A stretch of DNA of 64,000 bases from contig JBHGNT010000007.1 in NCBI GenBank assembly GCA_043228905.1, positions 22,196,001 to 22,260,000 of the forward strand, read 5' to 3'. The DNA is from Azolla caroliniana. Taxonomy: Eukaryota > Plantae > Polypodiophyta. Position 1 is the stretch's first letter. The number at the start of each line of letters is the position of its first letter. The notes beneath the pieces were generated by a model that saw only the letters and a program-made list of their open reading frames with translations, had not been told where the DNA came from and ran no database searches. Made by a program: the position numbers and the translations under genes. Positions 1 to 58,490 of this stretch are shown in pieces.

Positions 1-768
1 ATATTGGAAACGGCCCAACCAAATATATTCTCTTCCGATGGCTTTTACTACATGCAACACTACTAGTAGGTCAGTCATTGAACAGAGATGTGGCAACTAG
101 TCTTAGACAATGTTGTTATTGCAATGACATGCAGGAAACTACCAAGGATGCTCTTTGGTCATGCTTACTAGCCCAACAAGTATGGAATAAAGTTCTCCCT
201 TTATTCTTGACAATTAATGTAGGTTGCCTCTTCTCTTGGGGATCAACGATAAGGGGGTTCTCCATTCTAGCCTCCTGTTGTATGAAACAGATGATGCTCC
301 AGAGGCTATGACAGTCATCAACAAACATCTAATTGTTGTCTCCCTTTTTCACCAACCTCGCAAGCAAATGCCTATGTACCCATGTATATACCCATTACAT
401 TATGGATATTATGGAAGTATCGTTGTAAAAGACGATATGATTCCATAATTCCTCTTCTCTCAGATATATTGCCAGAATTATGGGGGTGTTTATTGACGAT
501 TGTGCGGGGGCAATACGACAATATGCCAGGCTCTTCAGAGGTTGTTTTGAAGAAAAGGAAAAAATTACTGCAATTATGGAGGAAGTTGCCTATGTTCACA
601 GTCTCCTCTCAATGACCGTTATGGAAATATCATCACCCTTGGTCCTTGCCCTGACCATTTCTTTTGTATATAATACTCTCTGATTTTACATCTTTGTAGC
701 CCTCCGACGCTTTTCTTAATGCAAATGAAGGAAATCTTTATGGACAAAAAAGAAAAGAAAAAGAAAAA
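1..768 (+). mobile_element. LINE (L1-like non-LTR retrotransposon) 3' fragment, degenerate, ending in A-rich tail
   Basis: Broken C-terminal zf-RVT-like reading (CCYCNDMQET..LWSC..AQQVW; LWILWKYRCKRRYD), 3'UTR then AAAAAAGAAAAGAAAAAGAAAAAG; closely similar to the reverse complement of 38363-39120. Confidence 0.8.
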
Positions 769-2823
769 GTAATATCCTTATTTTTGCTCCTTGTGTTATG
801 AAATATGGATAACATGTTAGTGACAAGAATGTAAAACCATTTTAGGAGCAAGTCGTTAGGATGCATTATCTCAAGCTATGTTATATAATTAATGCAACAT
901 CAAACCTATTGCTCAATTCTTGAGCCCAATCGTTAATGTTGCAAATCACAAGCAAGCTACCAATAAATTTTAGAATTTCAACAAGGTAACCTCATCATCT
1001 ATAACCACCAACCATTTGTTGGGGGATACCTAAAGTGTATATGTATAATGCCAAATCAAAACATTGTACATGTATTGTGTTGTTATAGTTGCAAGAGATT
1101 TATTTGAGGATTAGACGTAAGTATGCAAAATAGAGTTCTTCATCGTCATGGATCTAAGACACTAATGAAAGAGGGTCTTACGAACACAACATAATGGTTC
1201 AAAGCTAAAGGATCATTGGTTGTTGCAATACATCAAATAAGAAATTGGGCATCTAATAAGAGAATTATAATTGTTTACTTGTTTTCTTATTTTTTGGTCA
1301 ATATTTGTACTTGATTAGTAAGCATTTCTATTGTGAGAGAATTCATAAAGCCCATCAAGTATAAAAAGATCCAAAGCAACAACTTTCAATAGGGCATAAG
1401 TGCCACATTCGCGGGTGCTACTCTTCTAGAAACATGTGTCAATGTCAAAGGTATGTCTGTTAACTTTGATCGACTTGTGGACTTTATAGAGGCAGAGATA
1501 TCTCATAAAGGAAGGGCAGAAAATAAGGACTTTCCTGAAGAGATAGTTGGGCAAAATGGATACGCCTTTATTTGGGGGCTATGGGATGTAGGCCACATAT
1601 TCTTACTTAACCACACTCCCTTCATGCTGAAATCACTTCCTTTCTTTTCTTTCTAACATGCCCTTATAGATTCAATATTTTCTAATGCAGGACAATGCTA
1701 ATTGGTACAAGTTAGCCCTTGTAAAACAATTTAGAGGCATAAAATCACAAGATTTTGAAGCTTTGGTCAAGGGTCACCCATCAAGAAAATGCATAAAAGA
1801 TGGAAAATATTTTAGAGAGAAGAAAAGGGTTTTGCAAAGAGAAAAAGGTCAGAGAGAAGAAAAGAGTTTTAGAGGGATGAAAAGGCTTTTAGCGAGGTGG
1901 AAAAGGCATTAGATAGATATGATTGCCTGAACTTTTGTAGATGGAGCGAGTTAACATTTTCAAATTCTTTTCATTTCTTCGTTTCTCTTTAACTCATTTC
2001 TAATCTTAGGTTTCTTGATTGCCACATGCCAATATGCATGGTTTCGATGAGTAACATACATAATTCTTATTTTGAAATTTTCGTCTTAAATTTCATTGAT
2101 CGGCATCTTGCAAAATATATGGACACATGTAGAAGCTTTTAGATGATGGAATTCTTTGACTTCTCAAAGCATTGTAAATTACCGATCATGATCTAGGATG
2201 ATGTAAAGTTGGAAGCTCGAAAATAACCATAGAGAGTTGGTGATCAAATTAAAAATCTAAAGTGATGAAGATGGCTTGAACAATAGTTGAGCTTTACGAA
2301 TCAAATGCAATATCCTAGCCATGTTAGAAATATGAATGGCTCCATGCATGCACCACTTGAGTTCATGCCCATGTAATTGATATAATAATATAGTGTCCTT
2401 TGAGAGCTAGATAGATTTTATTATTGTCCTCAAGGATAAAATATGATGGTACACCATCCAATAGTCTAGGTGAAAGACAATAGTAAAATGAAATATTTTT
2501 CCTTCCTATTTGATAATTGTCAAATCAAATCCTTCTCCGCATATATAATGGAGATATGTTTACCACTGGGATAAATCATATCAAATGATCATTGTTTTGT
2601 TACTGAACTATAGCATGGAATTTCCATCAAGATGTATCAATAAGTGGTGTTTGAAGTTTGATTGTCATGGTAATAGGGGTATTGTGAGAACACAAATTGT
2701 TTTGGGGATTTTTGAGAATATTATAGGTATTTCGGCAAACAACTACGTATCGATGAATTGACTTTTGAGGAGTCATTGGTTTATCCAGAGAAAAGATTAT
2801 GAGATTTTACTTGTATTGGTTGA

Positions 2824-2896
2824 GGGGATGTAGCTCAATTGGTAGAGCACTTGCTTGACGTGCAAGATGTACAGGGTTCGAAACCCTGCATTCCCA
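2824..2896 (+). tRNA. tRNA-Val-GAC: tRNA gene with GAC anticodon (Val by anticodon) on a tRNA-Ala-type body
   Basis: 73-nt cloverleaf: acceptor GGGGATG/CATTCCC, D stem GCTC/GAGC, anticodon stem CTTGC/GCAAG with loop TT-GAC-GT (GAC 2857-2859), T stem CAGGG/CCCTG with TTCGAAA loop, discriminator A. Confidence 0.9.
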
Positions 2897-2904
2897 TAGA
2901 TATG

Positions 2905-2913
2905 TTTCTTTTT
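2905..2913 (+). terminator. Pol III oligo-T terminator of the tRNA gene
   Basis: TTTCTTTTT starting about 9 nt after the tRNA 3' end. Confidence 0.6.
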
Positions 2914-4515
2914 GAACAATTTGGTTCACTCAAATTATATCTTGTTAGATTTTTTATCTACTTCAATTGTTCACTTTTAAATTTTAAATTTTATGCATGA
3001 TTGAATGAATGGAGAAGAAGGATAAGCGTAAATTGAAGCAATGGTCATAGTTCAAGCATATCGTTGTCAAGTTTTTATCTTTTCGAACTTCAACAGCTTG
3101 TAATTTGTCTCATACAGTTAGCCTTTTAACTTTAAATGGCATTTATGGCTCACCCCACCACAAGTTCCATTTCCAAGCACTCACAAACCTCGTTTAGGTA
3201 TTGTAGCATCTACAAAAATATTCCTTTTGAACAATCTTGTTGAACAATGAACATATAACCTCTATTGCTATTGTGGACAAGTGTGATACTCTGCTAGGAT
3301 TATCGATGTAATAATAGAACGAAAAAAAATATCATTTAATTGCTAGGTATAAGGAACAAACACGATGAGCATTGGTTCTACACCTAAAACGGGTATGTGG
3401 AATGCCAACGAGCACAAGTAATGTGGCCATCACATGGCCCCTTAATAGTATGTGGAATTCCAATAGACACAAGGTGGTGGGACCCCTTGATAGACATCAT
3501 GCATAATGCCAACAAACACAAGTGATGTGTAGGTGCATTGTTAAGAGTCTATTACTAATTAACGGAATGAAATAAGGTAAACAGATTGGATAGAAGAACC
3601 CGTTCCACCCGACCACACCAGAGCTATGATCAAGACACAACCAACCTACCATTGTCCTCCCATACCGTTGAATATTAGCATGACTAATACTTTGGAAGAG
3701 ATAACACAATTGTTGCGACGAAAGCCTAGCCTGCACCACTGGTGTCTTAAGATGACAATGTTTCGATCTAATGTGTTTTATGAGGGTAGTTAGGCCTCGT
3801 ATTTAGACCTCTGCCTAGGCCCCTTGAATAGACGCGCCTTTCTAAAAAACTCTCCATTCATTGGTTGTCAAGATCATGATAGTGCATGCACCTATCATTC
3901 TTTCTATCCAATCACATTAGTCCCTTTGTAACATTAGTGAACATACCCTTCACTTATGTAAATATTAGTGACCTACCCTCACCTATGTGCAAGGATGTAT
4001 TGGTATGGTTGAGAAAATGTATTACGTGCAAAAACAAGCGCACTCGCAAGTAGTGTTGTAGTTTTGCGAGTTACAAGCAAATGTTATGAAAAAGATTTAA
4101 AAATAAGTCACTACCTATACGAGCCTAGAAGTGATGAAACAAGGTTCAAAAAACCATGTGTTACCAACTAAAAAATGCCATAAATAAATGGAGGGTGCTA
4201 TGTATGCACATATCTATCCAAATATTGTGATAGTGATTGGCATAATTGCGGCCACAAGGCCACACATTGATCAATACAAGTGGCGGTATTGTTGTGCGCA
4301 AAGATGTAGTACTCAAATCGATGTGTAAAATATCATAGGTGAAATCATGTGTTTTTAATCAAGTTCTAAGGCTCGATTACATGACTTAAACCTAGATAAC
4401 ACTTCAGAAAAAGTGTTCAAAAAGCGGCATGATGCCCACTCAATACGAAAAAATATTCTACATGGAATTGTTACACCATAGGTAAACACACGTAAATAGT
4501 ATATATGAACATGAC

Positions 4516-5983
4516 CATAGATTGACATATTCGCATTCATGGGGCCTGCCCCATGAATCCATATGAATAGGAATATGAATGCATGTAAATATATTTGTTT
4601 TTTTTTTTAAATAAAAAATAAAATGTTCTTTTTTTCCTGTGAGCGAGTGAACGAACAACGAGTAGCGAGTGAGGAAGCCTCACCCTACTCCCTCCCTGTG
4701 CGTGCTACCCTTGCTTCCCTCTGCATATTGTTCTCGGCCAGAAAATTAGGGTTTCAGCTGAAAGCCCTAATCTATCTCATAGTCCTAATTTCGATAATAT
4801 TTCTTTCTTTTGAGCCCGTGTCCGTGACTCCCTCTCATTCTCTATTCTAATCCTACATCTTGTTCTCAGCTCCAAACTCAGGCTTTCACTAAAACCCTAA
4901 GTTTAGCTAAGTTTAGTAGAAGCCCTAATTAATTAACTAATATTTTTCAATTAATTAATTAATTTGTTAATGAATTAAGATATGTATACAATATTAGTAA
5001 ATTAATTAATGTATTAGTGAGTCAATTAATGTTTAAGTGAATTAATTAATTATGATATTAGTGACTTAATTAATTATTGATGTATGTGTGTATATACATA
5101 TATGAGTGATATATGTGTGTGTATACACATGTATGTATTTGTGTATATGTATATATCATATATGTATGTGTATATATATACACATAGATTGACATATTCG
5201 CATTCGTCGGGTTTCCCATTCGAATGCAAACGAATACGAATGGGTGGTCAGGTATTCGTTTAACTCAAAAAAAATAAATAAATCAGTTTTTTTAAATTTC
5301 CTAGGATAAAAAAAAGGAACTTGACAATAAATAGGGATAATAAAAGAGGGACTTGAGGATTTGACACTATTAAATTTTTATAATAAATGTATAACTTATA
5401 AGTTATAAGTATTCGTTTTATTTTTAATAAATAAAAAAAATAAAATAAAGGCTCATTAATTTCTCACTTTTTATTCCCTCAAAATTTATGCATATTTTTA
5501 TTTTGACATTAAAAATAGTACTTCAAACCAATCATATCGTCAAGTTCATACTAATTATATTTGTATAATAAATATAAAAATATTCGATTTTTAAAAAATT
5601 AATTAATTGATTGATTAATTAAAATAAGTTTCATAAACTCTCTTGACACTATAATTTATTAATGAATAATTGTCTTTTTTGGTGAAATAAATTTATTTAA
5701 ATAAATAAATAAATATTTTATATTTATTTTGAAAAATGAATGGTTTTCTAATATTCTTGGGGCCATTTTATATTCTCGAATATGGAGAATATTGCGCATG
5801 GAGAATATCACGAATATCACGCATGTGTCAATCTATGTATATACATATATGATATATGTATGTGTGCACATGTATATGTAAACGAATGGTTTTATAATAT
5901 TCTCGGGACCGTTTTATATTGTTGAATATCGCGAATATTACGGATGTCGAATACCACGAATATTATGCATGGGTCAATCTATG
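4516..5983. mobile_element. Non-autonomous hAT-type element (outer MITE)
   Basis: TIR CATAGATTGAC...GTCAATCTATG; 8-bp TSD AACATGAC (4508-4515, 5984-5991). Confidence 0.85.
5183..5837. mobile_element. Non-autonomous hAT-type element (inner MITE, same TIR family)
   Basis: TIR CATAGATTGAC...GTCAATCTATG; 8-bp TSD TATATACA (5175-5182, 5838-5845). Confidence 0.8.
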
Positions 5984-7214
5984 AACATGACAATTAAGGG
6001 TAAAAAAGAGAGTTAAGTGTGGGTCGGTAGATGAAAATTATAAGAAAATCTTAAGAAAGTGGGAAGACAAATTGTGTAATTAGAAAATAATAACAATAAC
6101 AATAATCAAATAAGTATATGAAACATCAAACATGCCCTAAGGTAGTGAATAGGCACCTCATGAAGACCACAACATCCCATAGAATTGACTAATAGATGGC
6201 TCAATAGAGGTGAGAGTGTCATATACAACGCAATATGCAAAAGGGCCATGAGGTGAGTGTAGTGCAAACACGTGCGGCCCCATGCACAATCATCGCACAC
6301 AATACAAAACATGTCATGCAACTCAAAGAAGAAAGAAAGAAAATAAATCATAATCCAAATTTCATTCGACCAAGAATGACGCCTCATAGGAAAGAAGAGA
6401 GATATCGAAAAAGAAATTATCGGGTTTGGAATGTTGTTTTGATCTTGAGAAGAGCATGATGAGCCTTGTTAGATCCTCATCTCTCACACAGAAACATCAA
6501 AACAACAAAAAAAGAGCATGATGAGCCTTGTTACTAAACACTCTGATACCATATTAAGAGTCTATGACTAATTAATAGACCGAAACAAAGGTAAATAGAT
6601 TAGACAGAGAACCCGTTCCACCCGACCATCCTCGAGATATGATCAAGACATAGCCAACCTACCATAGACATTTCATACCTCTGAATATCGGAAGAGATAA
6701 CACGATTGTCACGACAGAAGCCTAACTGCACTACCGATGCCTTAAGATGGCAACCTTTCGACTTTATTGTGTTTTATGGGAGTAGCTAGGCCTCATATTT
6801 ATACCTCTTCCTAGGCCCTTTGAATAGACGTGCCTTTCTAAAAGACTCTCAATTCATTGGTTGTCAAGATCATGATAGTGCATGCACTTATCATTCATTC
6901 TATCAAATCATATTAGTCCCTTTCTAACATTAGTAAACATACCCTTCACTTATGTAAATATTAGTGACCTACCCTCACCTACGTTATGTGTGCATAACAT
7001 GCATGAACCCTTGATAGTATGTGGAATGCCAATAAACACAAGGTGTGAACCCCCTTGAAACACAATATGCATAAGGCCAACAAACACAAGTGATATATAG
7101 GTGCGTGGCACCTTTGTTTAAAGTCTAAATGGGAAAAGAAGGAACTAAGAGGAAAAATAGACTTTAAACAATGTAATAAAAATGAACCCATTTCATGTAG
7201 AAGTAGTCGAATTG

Positions 7215-7268
7215 TGTAAAGAATCGGGTGTGATTTTGTGTGACAGAAGAGATGTGTGTGTGTGTGTA

Positions 7269-7323
<55 letters not shown>

Positions 7324-7470
7324 CAAGGTATGCAGAAAACAAAAAAACTGTATTAACAAGGAAAGACAACCAACTATTACAAAGAAGAGGAGAAGGTGCT
7401 TATGTAGTCACCATCTCTCTATATTCTCTTACTACAACCACCTCTTAGGAAGGAGGTGTGTGTGTGTGTA

Positions 7471-7535
<65 letters not shown>

Positions 7536-7815
7536 CAAGGTATGCAGAAAACAAAAAAACTGTATTAACAAGGAAAGACAACCAACTATTACAAAGAAGA
7601 GGAGAAGGTGCTTATGTAGTCACCATCTCTCTATATTCTCTTACTACAACCACCTCTTAGGAAGGAGGTGGAGACTTAACTACCAAGTAACTATGTGTCG
7701 TAGAACTTAACTCCTATGACACATTAGTTATGATACAAAGTGGTGGGGTGTTCACACACTTCATTATTCCTAAGGTGTGTTCCCACACTATGGAAGTTGA
7801 GTTTGATACTCAACA
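7215..7815 (-). repeat. 3' LTR of old Copia, with ~205-bp internal tandem duplication
   Basis: Matches 28979-29375; the (GT)n-(GA)n...CCACCTCTTAGGAAGGAG block occurs twice (~7254-7455, ~7456-7667); adjacent TGCCCCTTC reads as the PPT on minus. Confidence 0.85.
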
Positions 7816-8873
7816 TGCCCCTTCAAACACAACTTCCGATCACCGGATAGTCAACTTGGGTATGGATTGGTCTTCGAGTTGGCTTTGGTAGTCGGCCCAG
7901 ACTTCGGTTGTGGATGGTTGACTCACTGCTTCGTTCGACTTCATGTTGGGTGGCGACTCCTTAGTCCCCCTTGAGCTCGGCTGGTTGGCGGTCAAGAGGC
8001 CTAGGTTCATTGTAAACTACCGTAGCTTGTCAGCTCCCATGGTGTTTGTGAAGATGTCAGTTGTTTGCAGGTTGGTGTTGATGTATTGCAGATCGACATT
8101 GCTAGCTAGGACACGTTCTTGGATGAAATGATAGTCCACCTCAATGTGCTTAGTCCGAGTGTGGAAGATTGGGTTGCTAGCCAGGTGGGTACTGCCCATG
8201 TTGTCATAGTAAAGGAAGATGGGATCGTTGATGGAGACATCAAGATCCTTAAGAATCCTCTTAAGCCAAACGGCTTCATAGGTTGCACCCTTGTATTCTG
8301 CTTCTGTGCTCGACAGTGCGGTTGTCGGTTGCTTTTTACTACTCTAAGAAATAGCTCTATTGCCGAGGGAGAAGACAAATATGGAAGTCGATTGTCTGTC
8401 GGCCTTGTAGCCGGCCCAGTCGGCGTTGTCGTGAAGATTTTCGGCAATGGTGTGAAAATCACATAAAACATAGGAAATCGAGTATAAATCATATAAAACA
8501 ATAATAGTGAAAATACTATTTTAAATATGTTTAATATCTTAGTACAAAAATATGGAGTTCTTCAAGAGCTTTCAAATGTGCTTTACTACATAAAAAAACG
8601 GACATCTAAGTGACAAGTTATGTGGGAGTGAAGTATAAGAAGGAAGAAGAGAAAAATAAAACTGTGAGATATCCCACATAGACAGGAAATAAGGTTCTCA
8701 CCATATATAAGGTAGAGCAAAAACAATTATCTTTGTGTCTATATGTGGAGCATAGAGAGTTCAAGGTGACTTGAACTAAGCTATTGGATGATTGGGTGTG
8801 GCCTAGCCAACCAAAACCGGACCGACAACCGGATACATATACATATATATATATACACAAGGAGTGCAAGTGT

Positions 8874-8927
8874 GGATTTGAACCTTGCACCTCCAAGTTG
8901 AGAGTCTATAGGCTTACCACTAAGCCA
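8874..8927 (-). promoter_or_regulatory. tRNA-derived Pol III A-box/B-box cassette within Gypsy LTR (repeated at ~12589-12643)
   Basis: Minus strand: TGGCTTAGTGG (A box) ... GGTTCAAATCC (B box) at tRNA-like spacing. Confidence 0.65.
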
Positions 8928-9404
8928 AAACATTATCTTAAGATAATATTTTTATCATTGTAACTTTACATGTAAATTCTCATACATGAGAGCTAAAATG
9001 AGTGACGTGGTTATCATGCACCACATGTAATACATGAGTGCCAAATGGCAAACATGCATTTTATGCATGTCGTGAACGCTCAAATGCATGAGGGCATCTA
9101 TAAAAGAGGGGATGAAAAAGACAAAAGGGGGATTTTGGTAATGTAAAAATTCTTATCAAGAGCTTTGTACTTTAAATCAAAATTAATATTAAGAAGAAAA
9201 TTCGTGATCCTTTTGATGATATACCTTGTTCTCTCAATCTTAAATCAAGCGTTCTATCTTATCTCAATTTCTCTCTATCTGTCAATCTATCTTAATTCCT
9301 TTCTCGCCAAACCTAGCGTAAACTTCGAATCCTTCCGGTTCAGAACCCCGACGGTTTTGCCTCACGATCCGCGCGTAGTGACGGATCTTCACGACATAAT
9401 TAAG

Positions 9405-14832: not shown

Positions 14833-16071
14833 TCAATTAGATTCCTCCATGTCTTCATTTTCATCCGGCCTATTATGTTCATCGTCGAGGTAATCGAGGT
14901 CAGGATCCTTGTCTTGTCTTTTCTTGAAAAGCTTTACTCTTTTTCCTGCAATGGGTACGGCCAACCTTGATCCGTCTAGTTCCGCAAGGTGGTATGTGGC
15001 ATTATCGTTGGCACTTGTCACCACATACGGCCCGAACCATCTTCTTGCGAACTTCCTTGTTGTACTATGTTGATTGTCAAGGGTGTTGTCGTAAACCAAA
15101 ACCCAATCCCCTTCTTCAATCTTCTTGGGACGAAGTCGATGCGTGTTGTTGAACCGAACTTTGTTCTTTACTCGGGCTGCCTTCATCATCTTTCGCGCTT
15201 TTTCTAAATCTTCAGGTCTTCTTTCAAGTTGCCTTATCCGCGCCGCTAATAACTCTTCTCGGCTCATCTCGTTCTCCCACGGTATCGCTACCCATGAGGC
15301 GATCGTCCTTTCGATGGGCATAATCGGCTTTTTTCCATACATAAGCTCCGTCGGCATATACCCTGTCACCGAGCTATGTGTCGTTCTATCAGTCCACAAG
15401 GCATAGGGTAATAGTCGTGGCCAATTCTCGACTCGACCGTTGCATGCACGTACGATGGCTTTAACGATAGGTCCATGCCCTCGCTCGATCTTCCCATTTG
15501 CTTCCGGATTGTAGGCAGTCGTGAGGGAGAGCTTCACGCCTAGTCTTTCGAAGAGCTCCGTCGCTTCGTGCGCGTCCAACTCCCCTCGGTCGGCCACTAT
15601 CTTCCCTACACATCCACATCGGCAAACAACATCTTCAAGTAAAAATTTACAAACGGCTGAAGTCGTCTTATTTGTCAAGGCTCGTCCTTCCACTTGATTT
15701 GTCAAGTCTTCCCTTGCGAGCACTAAGTACTTCATTTGTCCCACTCCCATTGGCATCGAGACCAGATCCACCATCCATTTGAAGTGAATGGTGAGTGGGT
15801 ATGTCGGCTTTAACTCATTACGATGACGTATATTTGAATATATTTGGCAAGTTTCACATGTGGACACGAAATGGAGTACATCTTTGTACATGCTTGGCCA
15901 CCAGTACTTCTCCTTCAATTTTTCGAACGTCGCCCATGTTCCTCTATGACCTGCCCAAGCACTCTCGTGGAATTCGGTCATCAGCGTCTCTTGCTCTTCT
16001 TTCTTTACCACCACTCGACGTGGTATTCCTGTCCTTCTTTTTGGATGTCGCCAAAGGAATCCTCCCTTCAA
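14833..16071 (-). CDS. pol: Gypsy integrase (pol C-terminus)
   Basis: HHCC zinc finger (H..AWAGH..C..C), DDE core (MVD..VADRGE..NPEANGKIER), GPY motif; no chromodomain. Confidence 0.88.
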   Translation of the reverse strand: MKGGFLWRHPKRRTGIPRRVVVKKEEQETLMTEFHESAWAGHRGTWATFEKLKEKYWWPSMYKDVLHFVSTCETCQIYSNIRHRNELKPTYPLTIHFKWMVDLVSMPMGVGQMKYLVLAREDLTNQVEGRALTNKTTSAVCKFLLEDVVCRCGCVGKIVADRGELDAHEATELFERLGVKLSLTTAYNPEANGKIERGHGPIVKAIVRACNGRVENWPRLLPYALWTDRTTHSSVTGYMPTELMYGKKPIMPIERTIASWVAIPWENEMSREELLAARIRQLERRPEDLEKARKMMKAARVKNKVRFNNTHRLRPKKIEEGDWVLVYDNTLDNQHSTTRKFARRWFGPYVVTSANDNATYHLAELDGSRLAVPIAGKRVKLFKKRQDKDPDLDYLDDEHNRPDENEDMEESN

Positions 16072-16077
16072 GAAGTA

Positions 16078-17880
16078 TCAGTAAGCTTTCTTTCGGATTC
16101 GTAGGGCCTCCTCCTTTGTCAACGAAGCATCTGTCGTCAATGTTCTTAGGAATCTACCGATGAGTAACCATTCTCCTTTGTACTCGTTCTCGTTGAAGGC
16201 GTGGAGGGTTTGCGTGTCCTGGTCTTCCGCCGACAATCGAGCCATCTTGAAGAAGTCGAGGGCGACATCTTCATCTTCCGAAACCATGTTACTTCCATTT
16301 GAAAATCTTGCCCTCGACAGCATGGCCTTCCTTAGTGCCGGAGCTTCAAGAAGCAGTTTCTTTAATCTTTGCATCGCCTCTGTGTGCTCTTCTCGCCATT
16401 CGAACTTTATTCTTTTCTTTAGTAGTCCATATAACGGTTCAGCGACATGAGCGTAGTGAGGAATCCATATATGATAAAACGCGCACGCTCCAAGGAACCT
16501 TCGAACCTCCGTTTGGTTTTCGCATTCTTCTTTCATGTCTTGGATTGCGTTCACTTTGGATGGCGAGGGCTTCCGGCCGTATGCTCCACACAAGTGACCT
16601 ACCACCAAGATCTCCGGTTGCCCGAATGCGGATTTTTCTCCCGAAAATGTCAAATTCGCATCTTCGAGCCTTTGAAGCACCTTCTCGCAATCTTTCATAT
16701 GATCCGCAACGAACTTTCTACAACCTTCCTTATCTTTCGATTCATCTTTCTCCTCATCCGAACATCCTTTTATCGGAATATCATCCAAGAATGGCATCGT
16801 GATGTCCGGAATGCAATCCTTCAAGACTTTATTCATGGCATTCACCATATGAGCCACCGAGTTCGTTGCGCCTTGGGGTAAGGTACACATCCGCACAAGC
16901 CCGATCGGAGTCCTCATGGTTGTAATGTCCCGACTGTCGATCGCCAATTGGAATTGGTCATATCCGGAGTAGAGATCGCCAATGGAGTAGATGGACCGGC
17001 CCGCAAATGCTTCGGCAAATTCGTCCACGCTCAGACCGATTCCGGCATTTCGAATTGTCACCTTGTTGACGGGTTGAAGATCTTGGATGAATCGCAATGA
17101 TCCATTCTTCTTCGGCACCGTGAACCACCTATTGGAATAAGGAGCATTCGACGGTTCTAGAATTCCCATACTCACCTTCTCCTTTAAGAGCTCGATCAGC
17201 TTCGGAAGGTGTGCTCTCGGAACCGGTATCGGTTTCAAATTCCAAGGCACATGAGGCACCGTGAAGATCACCATTGGCTCTATAACCTTTGGGTCGGCGC
17301 ATCCGATTTCTCATGGGAAGAATGCGAAAGCCTTCCCATGTCTCTCAAGCAGATCGCAAAACATTCGCTCCTCTTCAGGGAGAAGGAAATCCTCCTTTCC
17401 AACTCGTAGCTTCCCCTTCGTCTCTTTGGTGAAGTCATGACCTATCTTCTTCGGATCTCTTAAGCTTGGATCGTTAGCGACTTCCTTCATCTTTTGCCAG
17501 CTATCTTCTGGTAGCGGAACCGCAACTGGCTTGATCTTCTTATCCATCGTTTTATATTTCGTGTTGATGTCAGCTTCCTTCATCGAGATGCCACGACGGT
17601 ATTCATCGATGATAGCGTACATGTTGACGGAGTTAACCGAAATCACACGTTGGTTGTGAAGATAGCTCAAGTTCACGACGTCCTCGATTTCGCCGATGGT
17701 GTCGTAAAATGAGGCTTCTTCCATAATATGAGTCACGAACTCTCCTTCTTCTATTATATTCTCTTCTTTCAGCATCTTCTCGAATTCTTGTATCCGGCGC
17801 TTGTGCTTCTTGTCGGGTAGTACTAGTTTACATGCGCCACTAGGTGTGACACATGTTGCTTCTCCTTGCAATCCACGCAC
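16078..17880 (-). pseudogene. pol: Gypsy reverse transcriptase region, disrupted, RNase H apparently deleted
   Basis: LRFIQDLQPVN, DLYSGYDQF, LPQGATNS, FLDD; stop near 17311; APALRKA joined directly to MLSRAR. Confidence 0.85.
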
Positions 17881-17945
17881 TCTTCTTTCTTGTGGGGTCT
17901 TGTGATTGCTCGGACTATTTGTGCCCCATGCTTCAATAGTCCGCT

Positions 17946-18870
17946 CTAAAAATCCGAGGATTCGCCTCCGAGACTATCTCGATTCCTTTCATGATTGGCT
18001 CGCACCATTAGGAATTGAACCGATCTTTGGTTGTCAAGACTCTTTATTCGTGCGAAGGCTGCTCCATTATCGAACACTTTGGTCTCCATCCGAGATGATG
18101 TGATATAAGGTTGCCCTAGGATGACAGGATGCGACGCCGATTCTTGTACGAAGAAGTGTTGATCCATCTCCACATCCCCGATCGTGACTTTGACATTGGG
18201 ACAAGCTCCGTACAAGTCCTCCGTAGACTTTGTTGCCGCGCGAATCTTCCATCCGTGGTTTGTATTGATTGGCCATCTTCCCTTTTTGTAGAAGTCAGTT
18301 GACATGAGGTTGATCTCCGAGCCGTGGTCGATCAAGGCTACCACGGTCTCTTTCTTCTCCCCGATCTTCACCGGCGTCTCCGTTGTCGCTCGTGCCCAAT
18401 GAGGTCGAGTGTAGTGGCTGTCCACCATATCTTCATCGATTTTGTCTCTTGCCATCGTTATGGCATTCGTTTTTGCTTTTTGCGGCTTCTCTTCTTCCTC
18501 GTTCGATTGTTGTCTCTTTCTCTTTACAAGGTCCACGATCGTGTCGTGGAACTCCTTCTTCGTAATGCCAAGCAATTCCCTCAAGGACAAAGTTACGTGG
18601 CTATCAAGAACTCGTTCTTCGAGAATCTTCTTTAGGTCCGTCGTCTGCTCTATGTCCGACCTTAGCTTATAGGTAGGTATAGTCCTTGTCCTCCGAGTGG
18701 GGACTTCGACACCAACCTTCACGGGCCGAACCGTTTCTTCAACTCGTATGCTTGGCTCCCCTTTTCGGCTTGATTCTCGTTCCTCCTTTTGTAAAGGTCG
18801 ACTCGTCTCCGCATCGTCCTTCTTTTTCGCGTTCCTTGTTTCATGTCTTTTTGATGGCCCTTGCTCTTCT
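17946..18870 (-). pseudogene. Gypsy gag C-terminus and aspartic protease, separated from the gag N-terminus by the Copia insertion
   Basis: ALIDHGSEINLMS protease motif and VILGQPY; the listed ORF N-terminus (18876-18950) derives from the inserted LTR. Confidence 0.8.
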
Positions 18871-18875
18871 ATTCT

Positions 18876-21800
18876 TGTTGAACACCGCACTCGGCCACAA
18901 CCGAGAAATAGGATCAAATCACAGAAAACAGGAAATACGAAATGCTCCAAGACAATAGAGAGAAGAGTACACAGTATGTTTTACGTGGAAAACCCTAAAT
19001 GGGAAAAACCACGTGAGTCCTCAAACTCCAACTCACACTATACACAGAGATGTACAATGGTGAAGCTACAAGGCAACAACCTTGAGCTCACTGTCTTCGC
19101 CACAGGCGGCGGCAATACACAGAGGCAACGACCTCTTCGTCTCTCTCTCTCTCTCTCTCTCTCACGGCTGCTCTTGCTTCGCATGAAAAATAAGCAGCAA
19201 CATAAACTGTTTGCCCTAAGTCATATTTATACACATATGACTTTCGGGCTATTTACAAATATAGCCTCAAGGGCCCTTGGCAAACATATTCACAAATATG
19301 TCCCCGCATCCGGATCTCTCTCCGTGTACATTCGTCATCCGGCTCCGTAGTCGGGGTCTTCAGCATCCGGTTCCGTAACCGGGGTCTTCATCATCCGTAT
19401 CCGTATCCGGGTACTCTTCATCATCCGGATCCGCATCCGGGTACACTTCATCCGGCTTCATGCCGGGTACTCTTCATCATCCGGTTCCGTAACCGCAACC
19501 GGGCTTGCCGTCATTCATCTCCGGACATCCCATCCGGAGGGACCGAAATCCCAACAAACTCCCCCTTCACTTCGGCATGGGATGTCTCTCCAATCCGATC
19601 CTCTTCCGGCATGCTTCCAGCTTGTCGGGTGTGAGCACCTTGGTCAGCATATCCGACCCGTTCTCGTTCGTGTGGATCTTCGTCAGCACGAACTCCTTGT
19701 CTTCTATCCTTTCCCGGATCCAGTGGTATCTACGCTGGATGTGTTTCGTCCGGGAATGGTAGGCTGCGTTCTTCGCAAGGTGGATGGCACTCTGACTGTC
19801 GCAGTAGAGTCGGTACTCCTCCTGCCGGATACCGAGCTCTCTAATGAAGTCCTTCATCCATATTATTTCCTTGCCGGCTTCAACAGCCGCCATGTACTCC
19901 GCCTCCGTGGTTGACAACGCAACCGTCTTCTGCAGCCTCGACTGCCACGAAACAGCTCCCCCTGCATACGTCATCACATACCCTGATGTGGACCGGCTGG
20001 TATCTGCATCAGCCGACATATCCGAATCGGTAAAGCCGTCGAGTTCGGGCTTACCGGAGCCGAATCGGAGGCACACGTTTCCCGTGCCCTTCAGGTATCG
20101 GAGTATCCACTTGACCGCGTTCCAGTGCTCTTTGCCGGGATTGCTCATGTACCGGCTCACCACTCCGACTGCATATCCTATGTCCGGTCTCGTACACACC
20201 ATGGCGTACATCAAGCTTCTGACGGCAGAGGCATATGGTACTTTCATCATGTCCTCCTTCTCAGCCTTTGTCTTGGGGCTTTGCTTGCTGGACAACTTGC
20301 AGTTTGCCGGGAGGGTCGATCCGACCGGTCTTGCTTCCGACATGTTGAACCGTTGAAGCACCTTTGTCACGTACTTCTCCTGTGACAGCCACAACTGCTT
20401 CTTCTTCCGGTCCCGGATGATGTGCATCCCTAGTATTTGCCTCGCCGGACCCAGGTCTTTCATTGAGAAGGTTCGGTGAAGAGCCTTCTTCAGCATCCGT
20501 ATCTTGACCTGGTCCCGTCCGACGATCAACATGTCGTCCACGTACAGGAGGAGTATTAGAAAGTCTCCTCCTTCGAACTTCTTCACAAACACGCAGTGGT
20601 CGGACTGCGTTTTGAGGTACCCTTCGTCGGTCATGAAGGAGTCGAACTTCCGGTACCATTGCCGGGGAGCCTGCTTCAGTCCGTAAAGGCTCTTCTTCAA
20701 CCGGCATACCAGGTGCTCCTTCCCTTTCTTCTCGAATCCTTCCGGTTGCTGCATGTAGATCTCTTCTTCGAGGTCACCATGAAGGAATGCCGTCTTCACG
20801 TCCATATGTTCTACCTCGAGGTCCATGCTTGCCGCTATGCTCAGCACCGTCCGGATGGAGGTCATCTTCACTACCGGGGCAAATATCTCGTCGAAGTCGA
20901 CGCCCTTCTTCTGCTGAAACCCCTTCACCACAATCCTGGCTTTGTATCTCGGGGGGTTTCCGGCATCTCCCGGTTTCAGCTTGAACACCCACTTGTTTCG
21001 AAGTGCCCGCTTTCCTTTCGGCAACTCCACAAGTTCATATGTGTGGTTCTCATGCAGGGAATCCATCTCGTCCTGCATGGCACTCAACCACCTACGGCTC
21101 TGGGTGTCGTGCTTTGCTTCTTCAAAGCTCTCCGGCTCCCCTTCGTCGGTTAGCAGCACGTGCTCTGGTTCCGGAAATCTCCGGGGGGCCCTTCTCTCTC
21201 TTAGAGGATATCTCCGTTCCGGAGCTTCGGTAACCGGTTCTTCCGATTCTTCTTCATCCGAATCCATTTCGGGATCGGGGCCGGTTCCGGTATCGTTTTC
21301 ATCTTCTTCGGCCGGTTCCGTTTCTTCACCGTCTTCGGCCGGATCCTCGAGTGCTAACCGGTCCCTTGCCGGTCGGGACTGCTCCTCGTAGAGTTGATCC
21401 TCACCGGTCGACTTGGAGCTCTTCATCTTCTTCTCCGACTCCCAGTCGGCGAGCGTCTTGTCCTCCATGAAGATGATGTCTCGACTCCTGAATATCTTCT
21501 TGTCGACCGGGTCCCATACTCGGTAGCCGAACTCGTCGTCGCCGTAACCGAGGAATATGCATGGCCGGGTCTTTGGATCTAGCTTTCCTCTCCGGTCCTT
21601 TGCCACATGCACGTATGCGAGACACCCGAACACCTTCAGATGCCGGTAGGATACTTCCTTACCGGTCCACACTCTCTGCGGCGTGTCTCCGTCCAAAGGT
21701 ACTGAGGGTGATCTATTTATCACATATGTCGCCGTCGACATTGCCTCAGCCCAAAATCCCTTGGGTAATTTCGCATGCGCCAGCATACTCCGGACCCTCT

Positions 21801-24352
21801 CCATTATGGTCCGGTTCATCCTCTCGGCCAGCCCGTTCAGTTCCGGCGTCTTCGGCACAGTAAACTCGAGTCGGATTCCCTTCGAGCGACAGTACTCCTG
21901 GAACTGCCCCCGGTATTCCCCTCCGTTATCCGCTCGTATCGCTTTCAGCTTCTTGCCGGATTCTCTTTCCACTCTCGCGTGGAGTTCTTTAAAGACGGAC
22001 AGTACTTGGTCCTTTGTCTTCAACGGTGCCGTCCACAGCTTCCGGCTGTGATCATCAATGAATGTTACGAAGTACTGGGCTCCGCCATGTGACTTCGTTT
22101 CTACCTGACACACGTCGGTGTGCACCAACTCCAATGGTGCGCCACGTCTCGTCGGTGGCCTTGAGTGGAAGGAGGTTCGGTTTTGCTTACCGGCCAGACA
22201 GTCGGTGCACTTCTCCAGGCGCACATGCTTCACTGGAATAAGGTTGTCTTCTGCAAGCCTCTTCATCCCCTTCTCACTCATGTGGCATAGTCTCTTGTGC
22301 CACAGCTCACCGGCAGTGTCGGCTGCCACATTCAACTCTTCCGGACATAACCGGGCATTCATCAGGTACAGTGTGTTGTCTTTCCGGGCCCGAGCCACTA
22401 TCAGGTTCCCCTTGCTGAACTTCATTACGCCGTTTCGGATGCTACTTGTGTAGCCTTCATCATCTAGCCTCCCGGCCGAAATCAGGTTCAATCGAACCTC
22501 CGGAACGTGTCTGACATCCTTCAGCAGCATTTTGCATCCGGTCGAGGTTGTCACCCACACGTCTCCTATGCCGGCAATCCGGCACGTACCTTCATTTCCC
22601 ATCCGAACACAGCCATGCTCACCGGCTGTGTAGGATGAGAAGTATCTTCTCTCCGGGGTCAGGTGGAACGACGCTCCGGAATCGATCACCCAGGTCGTCT
22701 CATCGCCGGCAATGTTTAGTTCACCTTCTTCGGTGATGAGCATGATCTCCTCTTCACTTGCCGCGAGTGCCGTCGTTCCTTTCCGGTCCTGCCCTCGCCG
22801 ATCCGGACCTCTCCGGTCCGTGGCTCCCCGGTATGCACCGTTTCGTTCCGGTGACTTCTTCAAATCGGTGTCGTCGGCTCCGTTGTCTTTACGGTAATGC
22901 CGACAATTCTTTCGGAAGTGCCCCGGCTTCCCACAGTGGAAGCATGTTGGCCTTCCTCTTGACTGCGACCGGGTCCCCGACTTCTCCCGTCTTTGCGGAC
23001 TCCGGTTCCATTGTCTTCCCCGTTCCGATTCGGTAAGCAGCGCCTTCGAGTCGGAGACCGGTTCTTTATCTCTCCGACGCGCTTCTTCATTTAGAATGCT
23101 TGTCTTTACCATTTGTAGAGACAAGTTATCTTCGGTGCAGGAGGTGCTGAGTGTCACCACCAAGTTCTCCCAGCTTTCCGGCAATGTACACATCAGAATG
23201 ATGGCTTGCATTGCATCCTCCAACGGGAACTTGATCGCCGCAAGCTGGTTCACGAATCCCATGAACGTGCTTACGTGTTCCACCATACTCTCGCCGTCCC
23301 GGTACTTGAGGTTCACTATCTTTCTCATCAGGGAGGTCCGATTCAACGCATTCTTCCTCTCGTAGAGGCCCGACAGCTTCCGCCACATCTCATATGCGTT
23401 GGTGTCATTCGCCACGTGTTGTAGAACGCTCACGTCGACGTATTGCCGAATGGTTGCAACGGCTTTCCGGTTCAGAAGCCTCCACTCCGTCTCAAGTACC
23501 CCCTTGGGTATTTCCGACCTGTCGATCGGTTCATACAGGTCCCGAACAATGAGCAGGTCCTCCATCTTTATCTTCCAGTCGGCGTAGTTCTGCGCGTTTA
23601 GCACCATCATGCCCGGAGGCCCACCACCGCCGCCTTCCATCTTCTGTGTTACCGTCGCTCTGATACCACTTTGTTGAACACCGCACTCGGCCACAACCGA
23701 GAAATAGGATCAAATCACAGAAAACAGGAAATACGAAATGCTCCAAGACAATAGAGAGAAGAGTACACAGTATGTTTTACGTGGAAAACCCTAAATGGGA
23801 AAAACCACGTGAGTCCTCAAACTCCAACTCACACTATACACAGAGATGTACAATGGTGAAGCTACAAGGCAACAACCTTGAGCTCACTGTCTTCGCCACA
23901 GGCGGCGGCAATACACAGAGGCAACGACCTCTTCGTCTCTCTCTCTCTCTCTCTCTCTCACGGCTGCTCTTGCTTCGCATGAAAAATAAGCAGCAACATA
24001 AACTGTTTGCCCTAAGTCATATTTATACACATATGACTTTCGGGCTATTTACAAATATAGCCTCAAGGGCCCTTGGCAAACATATTCACAAATATGTCCC
24101 CGCATCCGGATCTCTCTCCGTGTACATTCGTCATCCGGCTCCGTAGTCGGGGTCTTCAGCATCCGGTTCCGTAACCGGGGTCTTCATCATCCGTATCCGT
24201 ATCCGGGTACTCTTCATCATCCGGATCCGCATCCGGGTACACTTCATCCGGCTTCATGCCGGGTACTCTTCATCATCCGGTTCCGTAACCGCAACCGGGC
24301 TTGCCGTCATTCATCTCCGGACATCCCATCCGGAGGGACCGAAATCCCAACA
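18876..24352 (-). mobile_element. Young, apparently intact Ty1/Copia LTR retrotransposon (Tork/Tnt1-like)
   Basis: 681-bp LTRs 18876-19556 and 23672-24352, identical by eye; TSD ATTCT; PBS TGGTATCAGAGC (23657-23668); PPT GAAGGGGGAG; single open polyprotein. Confidence 0.97.
19567..23640 (-). CDS. gag-pol: Copia gag-pol polyprotein
   Basis: From MEGGGGG: gag, CCHC knuckle (CFHCGKPGHFRKNC), protease (WVIDSGAS), GAG-pre-integrase/integrase (VHTD..FIDD..RADNGGE..NGLAER), RT (LYGLKQAPRQW, LYVDD), RNase H (STTEAEY, CDSQSA). Confidence 0.95.
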   Translation of the reverse strand: MEGGGGGPPGMMVLNAQNYADWKIKMEDLLIVRDLYEPIDRSEIPKGVLETEWRLLNRKAVATIRQYVDVSVLQHVANDTNAYEMWRKLSGLYERKNALNRTSLMRKIVNLKYRDGESMVEHVSTFMGFVNQLAAIKFPLEDAMQAIILMCTLPESWENLVVTLSTSCTEDNLSLQMVKTSILNEEARRRDKEPVSDSKALLTESERGRQWNRSPQRREKSGTRSQSRGRPTCFHCGKPGHFRKNCRHYRKDNGADDTDLKKSPERNGAYRGATDRRGPDRRGQDRKGTTALAASEEEIMLITEEGELNIAGDETTWVIDSGASFHLTPERRYFSSYTAGEHGCVRMGNEGTCRIAGIGDVWVTTSTGCKMLLKDVRHVPEVRLNLISAGRLDDEGYTSSIRNGVMKFSKGNLIVARARKDNTLYLMNARLCPEELNVAADTAGELWHKRLCHMSEKGMKRLAEDNLIPVKHVRLEKCTDCLAGKQNRTSFHSRPPTRRGAPLELVHTDVCQVETKSHGGAQYFVTFIDDHSRKLWTAPLKTKDQVLSVFKELHARVERESGKKLKAIRADNGGEYRGQFQEYCRSKGIRLEFTVPKTPELNGLAERMNRTIMERVRSMLAHAKLPKGFWAEAMSTATYVINRSPSVPLDGDTPQRVWTGKEVSYRHLKVFGCLAYVHVAKDRRGKLDPKTRPCIFLGYGDDEFGYRVWDPVDKKIFRSRDIIFMEDKTLADWESEKKMKSSKSTGEDQLYEEQSRPARDRLALEDPAEDGEETEPAEEDENDTGTGPDPEMDSDEEESEEPVTEAPERRYPLRERRAPRRFPEPEHVLLTDEGEPESFEEAKHDTQSRRWLSAMQDEMDSLHENHTYELVELPKGKRALRNKWVFKLKPGDAGNPPRYKARIVVKGFQQKKGVDFDEIFAPVVKMTSIRTVLSIAASMDLEVEHMDVKTAFLHGDLEEEIYMQQPEGFEKKGKEHLVCRLKKSLYGLKQAPRQWYRKFDSFMTDEGYLKTQSDHCVFVKKFEGGDFLILLLYVDDMLIVGRDQVKIRMLKKALHRTFSMKDLGPARQILGMHIIRDRKKKQLWLSQEKYVTKVLQRFNMSEARPVGSTLPANCKLSSKQSPKTKAEKEDMMKVPYASAVRSLMYAMVCTRPDIGYAVGVVSRYMSNPGKEHWNAVKWILRYLKGTGNVCLRFGSGKPELDGFTDSDMSADADTSRSTSGYVMTYAGGAVSWQSRLQKTVALSTTEAEYMAAVEAGKEIIWMKDFIRELGIRQEEYRLYCDSQSAIHLAKNAAYHSRTKHIQRRYHWIRERIEDKEFVLTKIHTNENGSDMLTKVLTPDKLEACRKRIGLERHPMPK

Positions 24353-24498
24353 ATTCTCTTTCTCTTTTCTTCGACGAACACCTCGTGGTTGTCGCACATC
24401 ACCTCTGCGAGTATGGTGTTGTCGTCTACTGGATCCGACCACCCGGTTATGCTTTGCACGCTTCGGTCCGCAAGCTCTACCTCGTTCGATGTGATTTT

Positions 24499-25626
24499 TC
24501 ACTTCTTCTCATATTCGAGAACGGAAGTCCAAAACTTTGCTCCCGCTCTAGCAACTTCAGTCTTGTCTTTCCCGACTCTTATTCCGGCCGACGCAGCATA
24601 GTGCATCGCATCCACATGAGTCGCATCGGCATCCTCCATAGATTTCTTCATTCCTCCTCTTCCGAAATTCACCCGTAGGGGTCTTCTAGTCTCACTTGAG
24701 CAGATCATGTTGTCCTCTATGTATACGATATTTTGTCGAATCTCTTCTCGAAGGCTCGCACAATCCCTTCTAATGTGCTCCATGCTATCGCACCACACGC
24801 ATCTAAAGGGTTCTTTTCCTTTAGGGCCCCGACGATTCATGTTGGCTAGCGTGACCTTCTCGAACATCTTCGCTAGCTCTTCGATGATGTCGTCATCAAT
24901 CTTCTTTTCTTCCACGTTACTTTGTCTCAGCGGCTCAGCTACTTTCGGCAGTCTTGCTTTCTCCGTGGTAGTCGGTCCCGTCATGTCGGTGTCATCAACC
25001 CATTGGCGACGCTTGTCGAGCCTATTGCATGCCCGCTTCACTGCGATCCAGTCCGCTACGAGCCCATTTGCTTGGGTATCATCTTCGAGAAGAGTCCCCA
25101 ACTCCCGTCTATCCTTTATGTCCACGGCCTTCAAGAAGTACAAAGTCTTGTCCTCTTCAAGCAATACTTGGTCCGTATTGGGGAGACGACTAAACATCTG
25201 GTCGAATTCGTCGTACACCCTCGAGACGCTCATCTTCTTATTCTTCTTCTCTATCCACTTCATCAGGGCATGTCGAGTCATCCTCGTTGAGTCTTCAGTC
25301 ACGAACTCCGCTAGTATCGTTTTCTCGAACTCGGACCATGTTGTCTTTCCTTCTTGAAGCTCGATGACGCATCTTTGGATGTTGTTGGCGACAACTCTCT
25401 TGAAGCTTGCGATTTGACGTGCCTCGGACACGTCCCTTTGATTCATCTCCCTCTTATATGCATCAAGGAACTTCGTAACGTTCCTTCCATCGAATTGGCC
25501 CTCGAGCTCTACGACACGATCGACAGCCTTCTCCACGCTCGCGTCGTTGTCCCGAGATCTCATCATTTGCTCGACGATTAGCATCATCCTTTCGAGCTCT
25601 CCTGCTTGGTTGCTTGAGGACGCCAT
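24499..25626 (-). CDS. gag: Gypsy gag (N-terminal part) with CCHC knuckle
   Basis: FDGRNVTKFL motif and CVWCDSMEHIRRDC; lies just downstream of the PBS. Confidence 0.85.
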   Translation of the reverse strand: MASSSNQAGELERMMLIVEQMMRSRDNDASVEKAVDRVVELEGQFDGRNVTKFLDAYKREMNQRDVSEARQIASFKRVVANNIQRCVIELQEGKTTWSEFEKTILAEFVTEDSTRMTRHALMKWIEKKNKKMSVSRVYDEFDQMFSRLPNTDQVLLEEDKTLYFLKAVDIKDRRELGTLLEDDTQANGLVADWIAVKRACNRLDKRRQWVDDTDMTGPTTTEKARLPKVAEPLRQSNVEEKKIDDDIIEELAKMFEKVTLANMNRRGPKGKEPFRCVWCDSMEHIRRDCASLREEIRQNIVYIEDNMICSSETRRPLRVNFGRGGMKKSMEDADATHVDAMHYAASAGIRVGKDKTEVARAGAKFWTSVLEYEKK

Positions 25627-26095
25627 CTCCAAGTATTAATCTCGACTTGATCTTTCCTACCGCCTCTTTCACGTCGGGTTCACCACTTAATTATGTCGTG
25701 AAGATCCGTCACTACGCGCGGATCGTGAGGCGGAACCGCCGGGGTTCTGGACCAGAAGGATTTAGAGTCGATACAAGCTTTGGCGAGAAAGTACTTAAGA
25801 TAGATTGGGAAAGAGAGAAGTTGAGATTACACGATCAATTTGATAACGAATTTCTTCCTCTTAATTTTCATAAAAAAAAACCGTGTTTTTTCTCCTCCCC
25901 CTTCCCTCTTTTATAGATGCTCTCATGCATATGATGCATGTGAGGGTACAAGACATGCATAAATTGCATGTTTGCCATTTGGCGCTTAAGTATTACATGT
26001 GGTGCATGCTAATCAGGTCACTCATTTTAGCTCTCATGTATGAGAATTTACATGTAAAAGTACAATGATAGAAATATAATTTCAACTAAATAGCA

Positions 26096-32000: not shown

Positions 32001-32494
32001 ATATAATGCAGTTAAAAATGACATAAGGGGAAATTATATGCACCGAGAAAAATGTTAGCTTGTAAACATTTAGGTTCATAGTATTTGTAATCGTGGGGCT
32101 ATTTGATCTCTCACTAACTGATCTATAGCAACGTGTAACTTTTAAGGCAGGCATTGTGCAACTTACAAGAGACGAGCAATCATGAGTAAATAATGCCTTA
32201 AAGAGAAAAATGAGGCACTCACAAAAGGCTATCTTGTAATATTAGTATATAATAAGTAGTACGCTATAAGGTAGCTATAAACAAGAACACTTGTGAGAAG
32301 TAGATATATTTGTGGTAACTACTTAGAAAACAATGGAAAACATCATAATTCTACATTAGTACTAGTTTAATATCCTGCAAACACTTGTATCTCAATATAT
32401 TTAATGTTTCTAACTAGGAATTAGCAATTCACAATTGAGGTGTGTGTGTATATATATATATATATTGTGTGTGTGTGTGTTGAGGGATTTGCCT

Positions 32495-42723: not shown

Positions 42724-42726
42724 GAC

Positions 42727-44520: not shown

Positions 44521-44606
44521 TTGATTTGATGAAATGGAACCACGACTAGGAACTAACTCTACATAGCTAGGATGGTCCAGCCAAATGGCTCCTATTTTGG
44601 CCGGAC

Positions 44607-57060: not shown

Positions 57061-57238
57061 AATAACCAAAAACTTGTGGGCAATTTTTGGGTGGGTATCA
57101 GGAATCTGAAGTCCTATAATCTGTATGAGAAACTAAAAGAAAAAGTTAATATTTATATAATAAAGATTAACATTCTCTGATTCTCTGTGTGTTTCTGCCC
57201 CTGCCTCTTTCTTTGCCTCCCCCCTGTTTCTTCAAATA

Positions 57239-58444: not shown

Positions 58445-58490
<46 letters not shown>

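Follow-up and report, generated by a model that had tools for sequence, protein, structure and literature searches.

A nuclear tRNA gene of ferns with an alanine-type body and a valine (GAC) anticodon

A tRNA gene whose body resembles that of alanine tRNAs and whose anticodon is GAC raises three questions: from which tRNA it descends, which amino acid it carries and in which compartment, if any, it works. We analysed such a gene within a stretch of 64 kb of plant DNA, referred to here as the window. The original prediction had left it open whether the gene encodes an anticodon-switched tRNA, an alanine-charged tRNA that misreads valine codons, or a tRNA with a non-translational role.

The tRNA gene and its host

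The gene at positions 2824-2896 of the + strand is complete, comprising 73 nt with neither an intron nor an encoded CCA end. ARAGORN reported it as tRNA-Val(GAC) and as the sole tRNA of the 64-kb window, and Rfam family RF00005 matched it as a tRNA over the whole model with 67.7 bits against a gathering score of 29 (E = 1.7e-13). Folding likewise gave the cloverleaf as the structure of minimum free energy (-29.9 kcal/mol, z = -3.81), and 0 of 200 shuffled sequences were equally stable. These three results bear out the fully paired cloverleaf with a GAC anticodon. The features of the window that matter for the following sections are these:

2824-2896, + strand: tRNA gene with alanine-type body and GAC anticodon (sequence, ARAGORN, Rfam and folding)
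2824-2830, + strand: 5' strand of the acceptor stem, pairing with 2889-2895; G3-C70 is 2826:2893 and G4:U69 is 2827:2892
Within the stem starting at 2824-2830: acceptor pair 2:71, G-C in the window gene and C-G in the paralog L013
2831-2842, + strand: A-box region, tRNA positions 8-19 (sequence)
2855-2861, + strand: anticodon loop U32-U33-G34-A35-C36-G37-U38, with the GAC anticodon at 2857-2859
2876-2884, + strand: B box and T loop with U54 and A60
2909-2913, + strand: run of five T, 12 nt past the tRNA gene (sequence)
57440-57544, 58678-58800, 59279-59383, about 59485-59577, 59983-60075 and a long last exon to 60813, + strand: conserved exons of a PTPMT1/DSP8-like phosphatase gene

Reading of the individual tRNA positions gave G3-C70, G4:U69, A15, U20, U32, G34-A35-C36, G37 and U38, and in the 3' half U45, A48, U54, A60 and A73. 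The replacement of the alanine identity pair G3:U70 by G3-C70 plus G4:U69 was thereby confirmed, as was the predicted U54 in the T loop, where the host-type Ala genes of the compared sequencing runs have A54. The predicted oligo-T terminator corresponds to the five-T run at 2909-2913, which is likely an RNA polymerase III terminator; T runs also lie 3' of other copies of the gene. The A-box region we take to be the internal promoter element for the same polymerase.

The DNA of the window is nuclear and of plant origin, and it contains copia and gypsy elements. Its spliced PTPMT1/DSP8-like gene (57164-60813, + strand) is, over five conserved exons, 82% identical to that of Pteridium, 81% to that of Adiantum and 77% to that of Ceratopteris, and the named moss, liverwort, lycophyte and seed-plant sequences reach 73% or less. 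In a tree of 29 sequences it grouped with the three named ferns with a support of 93/80, which is short of the level starred by the tool. Judged by this gene, the host of the window is a fern and not a bryophyte.

Other parts of the window deserve a brief description. A stop-free copia polyprotein reading frame of 1380 aa (19567-23709, - strand, inside 14833-25635) lies beside or within a broken gypsy-type element (14833-18980), and a chromodomain gypsy element at 40954-45734 (- strand) has gag, RT, RNase H, integrase and chromo domains distributed across three reading frames. A lineage-restricted gene likely has exons in positions 32414-35491 (+ strand), where the frame of 383 aa at 33423-34574 had no Pfam match and only two homologues, which are 87-88% identical. 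Two related stretches about 3 kb apart (3393-3988 and 6554-7104; pieces 83-92% identical, with short internal repeats) may be the termini of a non-autonomous element that lies just downstream of the tRNA gene, and similar repeats occur in the metagenomic locus L028.

Copies in other organisms and loci

Among the sequencing runs listed, 20 contain the tRNA stretch wholly or partly, and 8 of the 24 listed were compared; these eight represent seven organisms besides that of the window, lettered B to H. All eight carry the tRNA gene with 0 or 1 differences, several of them in unrelated flanks. No difference over the full gene was found in organism E (run X10) and organism F (runs X13 and X17), where the flanks are unrelated and GC-richer, and organism H showed one difference over the full gene, again in unrelated flanks. 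In the case of organism G, one difference was present over tRNA positions 3-73, and organisms B, C and D yielded a 68-nt contig covering positions 3-70 without any difference. Organism F has an additional, second copy with four differences. We infer that organisms E, F and H are ferns. In two runs guessed to be RNA, the gene was present at a depth of 2-3 with genomic flanks, so that they may be DNA.

A metagenome scan gave 63 loci, two of which are the fern tRNA gene. One of these, L028, is the orthologous locus, in which all 73 bases of the gene are identical as against 86.5% in the flanks (P = 2.6e-5); for three such comparisons, the probabilities of the observed gene identity at flank rates were 2.6e-5, 2.2e-4 and 5.3e-6. 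The other, L013, is a paralog with unrelated flanks and a compensatory change of G2-C71 to C2-G71. Between unrelated loci, identity stops at the borders of the tRNA gene, and G4:U69 is present in every full copy seen. The G2-C71 and C2-G71 forms likely coexist as paralogs, because the 68-nt contigs stop exactly where the two forms diverge and loose ends in organisms C and G terminate in the C2 form. The distinct flanks indicate several copies per genome; the depth of the collapsed 68-nt contig (57, 63 and 24, against flank depths of 6+8, 20-26 and 16), which does not give a copy number, hints at a few. Helenus-type tRNA-carrying elements were considered and rejected, as the flanks are unrelated between loci.

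On these comparisons the gene belongs to a small family under purifying selection and is not decaying. The near-invariance across organisms and loci, together with the compensatory 2:71 swap, upholds the original argument against random decay. Two findings that had been named beforehand as refuting the prediction were not made: the gene is not a single unconserved copy, being kept in seven other organisms and at several loci, and searches for tRNAs, Rfam families and flank matches revealed no organellar context around it. It is fern nuclear DNA, neither a decayed copy nor an isolated organelle insert.

Descent of the tRNA body

With the anticodon masked, the nearest sequences were eukaryote-type tRNA-Ala genes with 12 differences, and the best bacterial tRNA-Val(GAC) had 17. 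The Ala sequences had been collected with a search pattern fixing positions 1-25 and the bacterial Val sequences with a pattern fixing positions 8-43; over positions 44-73, which were free in both patterns, the mean number of differences was 8.45 for 11 Ala sequences and 14.36 for 28 bacterial Val sequences. The alanine-type features of the body comprise the acceptor core, A44, A48 and C49-G65. The NGC anticodon and the A54 of cytosolic tRNA-Ala are replaced by GAC and U54; the Ala set of 11 was itself defined by A54, and its 0/11 on this point is by construction. A kinship to the eukaryotic cytosolic Val(AAC/UAC) lineage was not apparent from the alignment scores, which ranged from 28 to 35 of 73 for eight eukaryote-type Val sequences, all from viral contigs. 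These comparisons support the predicted alanine-type body with a switched anticodon, and we consider it probable that the gene was recruited from a tRNA-Ala. An origin through a reverse-transcribed, edited Ala(IGC), which would provide G34 and G37 at once, is one idea of how this might have happened.

The alternative is that a bacterial tRNA-Val(GAC) supplied all or part of the gene, either through horizontal transfer or because it recombined with an Ala gene of the host; such a source would fit both the chloroplast role and the cytosolic or mitochondrial role considered below. In its favour is the anticodon arm: positions 26-43 are identical in 8 of 28 distinct bacterial Val(GAC) sequences. 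However, these 28 had been selected by a pattern for that arm, and among 70 prokaryote-type Val(GAC) sequences collected without regard to it, none had the fern arm; the closest differed at 16 of 54 positions (with C48 fixed by the pattern). Alanine-like states are rare in these 70 sequences (C49 in 2, G65 in 1 and A60 in 1). The bacterial gene L005 also has G3-C70, G4:U69 and A15, and it has C2-G71 in common with L013, from which it differs at 15 positions; outside the arm, however, L005 shows 17 differences, as against 8 for Ala. A scan of 185,579 prokaryote genomes in GTDB gave a single, unrelated match, with a pattern that required G7 and would miss L005-like genes, and the best near-full-length matches in phage and plasmid searches reached 75-83%.

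The trees leave room for both origins. A tree placing the gene in an Ala-body group had a UFBoot support of 94, with bacterial L005 inside the group, and the best tree joined the fern pair with L005, a long branch, with a support of 96/92. AU tests rejected neither an Ala origin (p = 0.256) nor a bacterial Val origin (p = 0.14). A grouping of the fern sequences with prokaryotic Ala gave p = 0.009, which is not a fair test because that group does not form a single clade by itself; 18 sequences classed as 'other' were left out. Precedents for bacterial-type tRNAs in related plants are the chlamydial-type tRNAs reported from fern mitogenomes and the bacterial-type Arg(UCU) of Selaginella. On balance, we regard a bacterial contribution as unlikely.

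Two observations were made on genes recovered along the way. The gene in L005 (675-750, - strand) is a bacterial-type tRNA-Val(GAC) with G4:U69 and G5:U68 wobbles and the anticodon arm of the fern gene. The loci L121 and L139 (501-600, + strand) contain Ala-type tRNA genes in giant-virus-like contigs, with extra sequence after the anticodon loop that is likely an intron.

Charging and role

According to the review of Giege and Eriani (PMC9976931), eukaryotic valine identity resides in A73 and A35 and bacterial valine identity in A73, G3-C70, U4-A69, A35 and C36. The main set, A35, C36, A73 and G3-C70, is present in full in the fern tRNA, and the alanine identity pair G3:U70 is absent. As G3:U70 was lost and the main valine determinants were gained, the tRNA is likely charged with valine. 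Secondary elements differ, with G4:U69, U20, U45 and U38 in place of U4-A69 or the absence of a G.U pair, G20, G45 and C38. Charging of E. coli tRNA-Val suffers from a G.U pair at position 3 or 4, and wheat-germ ValRS relies on C38, as seen with a viral tRNA-like structure (PMC9976931). U32 occurs in 65 and U38 in 59 of the 70 distinct prokaryote-type Val(GAC) sequences, and C38 in all eight of the eukaryote-type Val sequences among those listed. U32 and U38 need not be an adaptation, as they are also the alanine state.

Some charging with alanine is possible by analogy, because human AlaRS efficiently mischarges a G4:U69 tRNA-Thr (PMC7337962), and the G4:U69 that was kept may let AlaRS still bind the fern tRNA. 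The notion that an alanine- or dual-charged tRNA inserts alanine at some GUU and GUC codons, with AlaRS reading G4:U69 on an alanine-type body, gains from the retention of this pair in every full copy, which contrasts with only 2 of 66 prokaryote-type Val(GAC) sequences. If alanine charging were the aim, however, it would have been easier to retain G3:U70, and the mischarged G4:U69 tRNA-Thr of vertebrates undergoes editing, with no mistranslation detected in that study, whose data do not extend to plants (PMC7337962). The GUY codons of the neighbouring PTPMT1-like gene also argue against it: of 10 in the conserved exons, seven align mainly with valine, one with isoleucine and one with leucine, and only a codon at an exon end aligns with alanine; these codons are thus not reassigned, which is still compatible with low-level misreading. 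An alanine-charged tRNA that misreads valine codons, one of the options originally put forward, is therefore the weaker one, and we consider it improbable.

The reading that we prefer, at about even chances and beyond the options originally put forward, is a nucleus-encoded replacement for a lost plastid trnV-GAC that would be imported into chloroplasts. Loss of trnV-GAC from the plastome is placed in the ancestor that the Schizaeales have in common with the core leptosporangiate ferns (PMC9134734). Fern plastid trnV-UAC has been validated only in a few Pteridaceae, and Du et al. note that failed validation may reflect RNA editing (PMC9134734). Plastids of Selaginella import nuclear tRNAs, one of them an Ile(CAU) that arose from Ile(AAU), and import into plastids was proposed for ferns too in that work (PMC11573648). 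In eukaryotic genomes, four-box tRNAs with G34 are nearly absent; such tRNAs are toxic in human cells and miscode unless positions 32 and 38 can pair, Val not being among the tRNAs tested in cells (PMC7293025). Near-absence and miscoding make a plain cytosolic role awkward, and together with the prokaryote-type loop, the loss of trnV-GAC in ferns and the import in Selaginella they are why we favour replacement.

The alanine-type nuclear copy would be transcribed by RNA polymerase III and then receive its CCA end. Charging with valine would most plausibly be carried out by the organellar bacterial-type ValRS, since prokaryote-type Val(GAC) normally has the U32/U38 loop and the wheat-germ enzyme relies on C38. 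The tRNA would then enter the chloroplast by the route shown in Selaginella, and miscoding by G34 in the cytosol would be avoided through poor cytosolic charging. Against replacement, the link to the loss of plastid trnV-GAC is only a coincidence of lineages, and a special gene is not required, as Selaginella imports ordinary cytosolic Val isodecoders (PMC11573648). In tobacco, trnV-GAC can be dispensed with, though only thanks to an intact, essential trnV-UAC (PMC3499367).

Less probable than chloroplast replacement is a functional Val(GAC) that acts mainly in the cytosol or in mitochondria beside Val(IAC), which would make ferns an exception to the near absence of G34 from four-box tRNAs. 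The same conservation and identity evidence fits this role, as do the several gene copies per genome, and several of the imported Selaginella tRNAs also serve the cytosol (PMC11573648). What makes it rather unlikely is that U32 and U38 cannot form the 32-38 pair that would prevent miscoding (PMC7293025), that U38 stands in place of the C38 used by wheat-germ ValRS (PMC9976931), and that trnV-UAC is retained in fern mitochondria: two leptosporangiate mitogenomes are reported to keep both trnV-UAC and trnA-UGC. A mitochondria-enriched Val(GAC) in Silene was considered as a parallel and discarded, as neither the Silene preprint nor the Arabidopsis aminoacylation paper mentions 'GAC'.

A non-translational job, as a source of tRNA fragments or a retroelement primer, would suit the wealth of LTR elements in the window, and near-invariance is compatible with any sequence-specific role. 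Yet all arms, the anticodon and the 2:71 pairing are conserved as in a ribosome substrate, no primer-binding site for the tRNA 3' end was found in the window (two matches with two mismatches, 4.63 being expected), and the gene belongs to no repeat family of window positions 1-9000; such a job is improbable. A pseudogene, a tRNA-derived repeat or an organellar insert is largely refuted: although 7,848 tRNA-like genes are listed for Azolla filiculoides, so that fern genomes can hold thousands, and degenerate Ala copies were seen in the compared runs, the gene borders and compensatory change described above speak against it, the window has no second tRNA, positions 1-8000 contain no organellar RNA, and the flanks showed no organellar sequence decaying at flank rate, as a NUPT or NUMT would.

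Several known systems resemble parts of the fern case. With plastid and bacterial tRNA-Val(GAC) the fern tRNA shares G34-A35-C36, U32/U38, G3-C70, A73 and U54, and 8 of 70 prokaryote-type Val(GAC) sequences have exactly its 7-nt anticodon loop; in contrast to these, it follows tRNA-Ala in the acceptor core, the variable loop and the T stem. The body of plastid trnV-GAC presumably differs from that of the fern tRNA as well. Like the imported tRNA-Ile(CAU) of Selaginella kraussiana (Berrissou et al. 2024, PMC11573648), it is encoded in the nucleus, probably by a gene of eukaryotic descent, and has an anticodon of the organelle type; both plants are vascular and without seeds, and the fern, like Selaginella, would have lost tRNA genes from its plastids. 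In Selaginella, however, both anticodons belong to the same amino acid and import has been measured, whereas the fern tRNA probably went from Ala to Val with a rebuilt acceptor stem and its import is only predicted. In alloacceptor tRNA remolding (PMC4783518), a duplicate likewise takes over the anticodon and identity of another family and stays nearer to its parent in sequence; this was described for animal mitochondrial genomes, whereas the fern gene is nuclear, multi-copy and has a G34 anticodon. A conserved G4:U69 in a non-Ala tRNA is common to the fern gene and vertebrate tRNA-Thr(G4:U69); the vertebrate tRNA differs by its Thr body, where the fern gene has an alanine-type one, and an editing route is known for it (PMC7337962).

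Identity switches and plastid tRNA import are thus known in kind; their combination was not found in the literature searched. We found no description of a fern Ala-bodied Val(GAC) and no paper with a 14-nt motif of the gene. A plain Val(GAC) may be listed in PlantRNA, GtRNAdb or the supplement of PMC12652284, which may cover the tRNA genes of 50 plant genomes; PlantRNA 2.0 annotates one fern and may list the gene as Val(GAC) or as tRNA-like. In a 2026 review of plant tRNA repertoires, 'GAC' is absent from the main text, and the matches listed from its supplement concern organellar tables.

A fuller version of chloroplast replacement, which we put forward tentatively, is that ferns evolved a nuclear gene for a tRNA dedicated to the chloroplast. 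A copy of a cytosolic tRNA-Ala would have become a prokaryote-like Val(GAC) through G34, U54 and G3-C70, with U38 kept so that cytosolic ValRS would largely ignore it and G4:U69 kept as a handle for AlaRS in escort or import, and it would have stayed nearly invariant since the loss of trnV-GAC. Only one plant genus has been shown to import tRNAs into its chloroplasts, and for ferns such import is a proposal; a nuclear tRNA of unique sequence with an organelle-type anticodon is an ideal probe for it. Eukaryotic nuclei have next to no four-box tRNAs with G34, and the gene is a natural exception in this respect as well. It probably represents a switch of amino acid identity fixed in a nuclear genome, and its conserved G4:U69 offers a test of the specificity of plant AlaRS.
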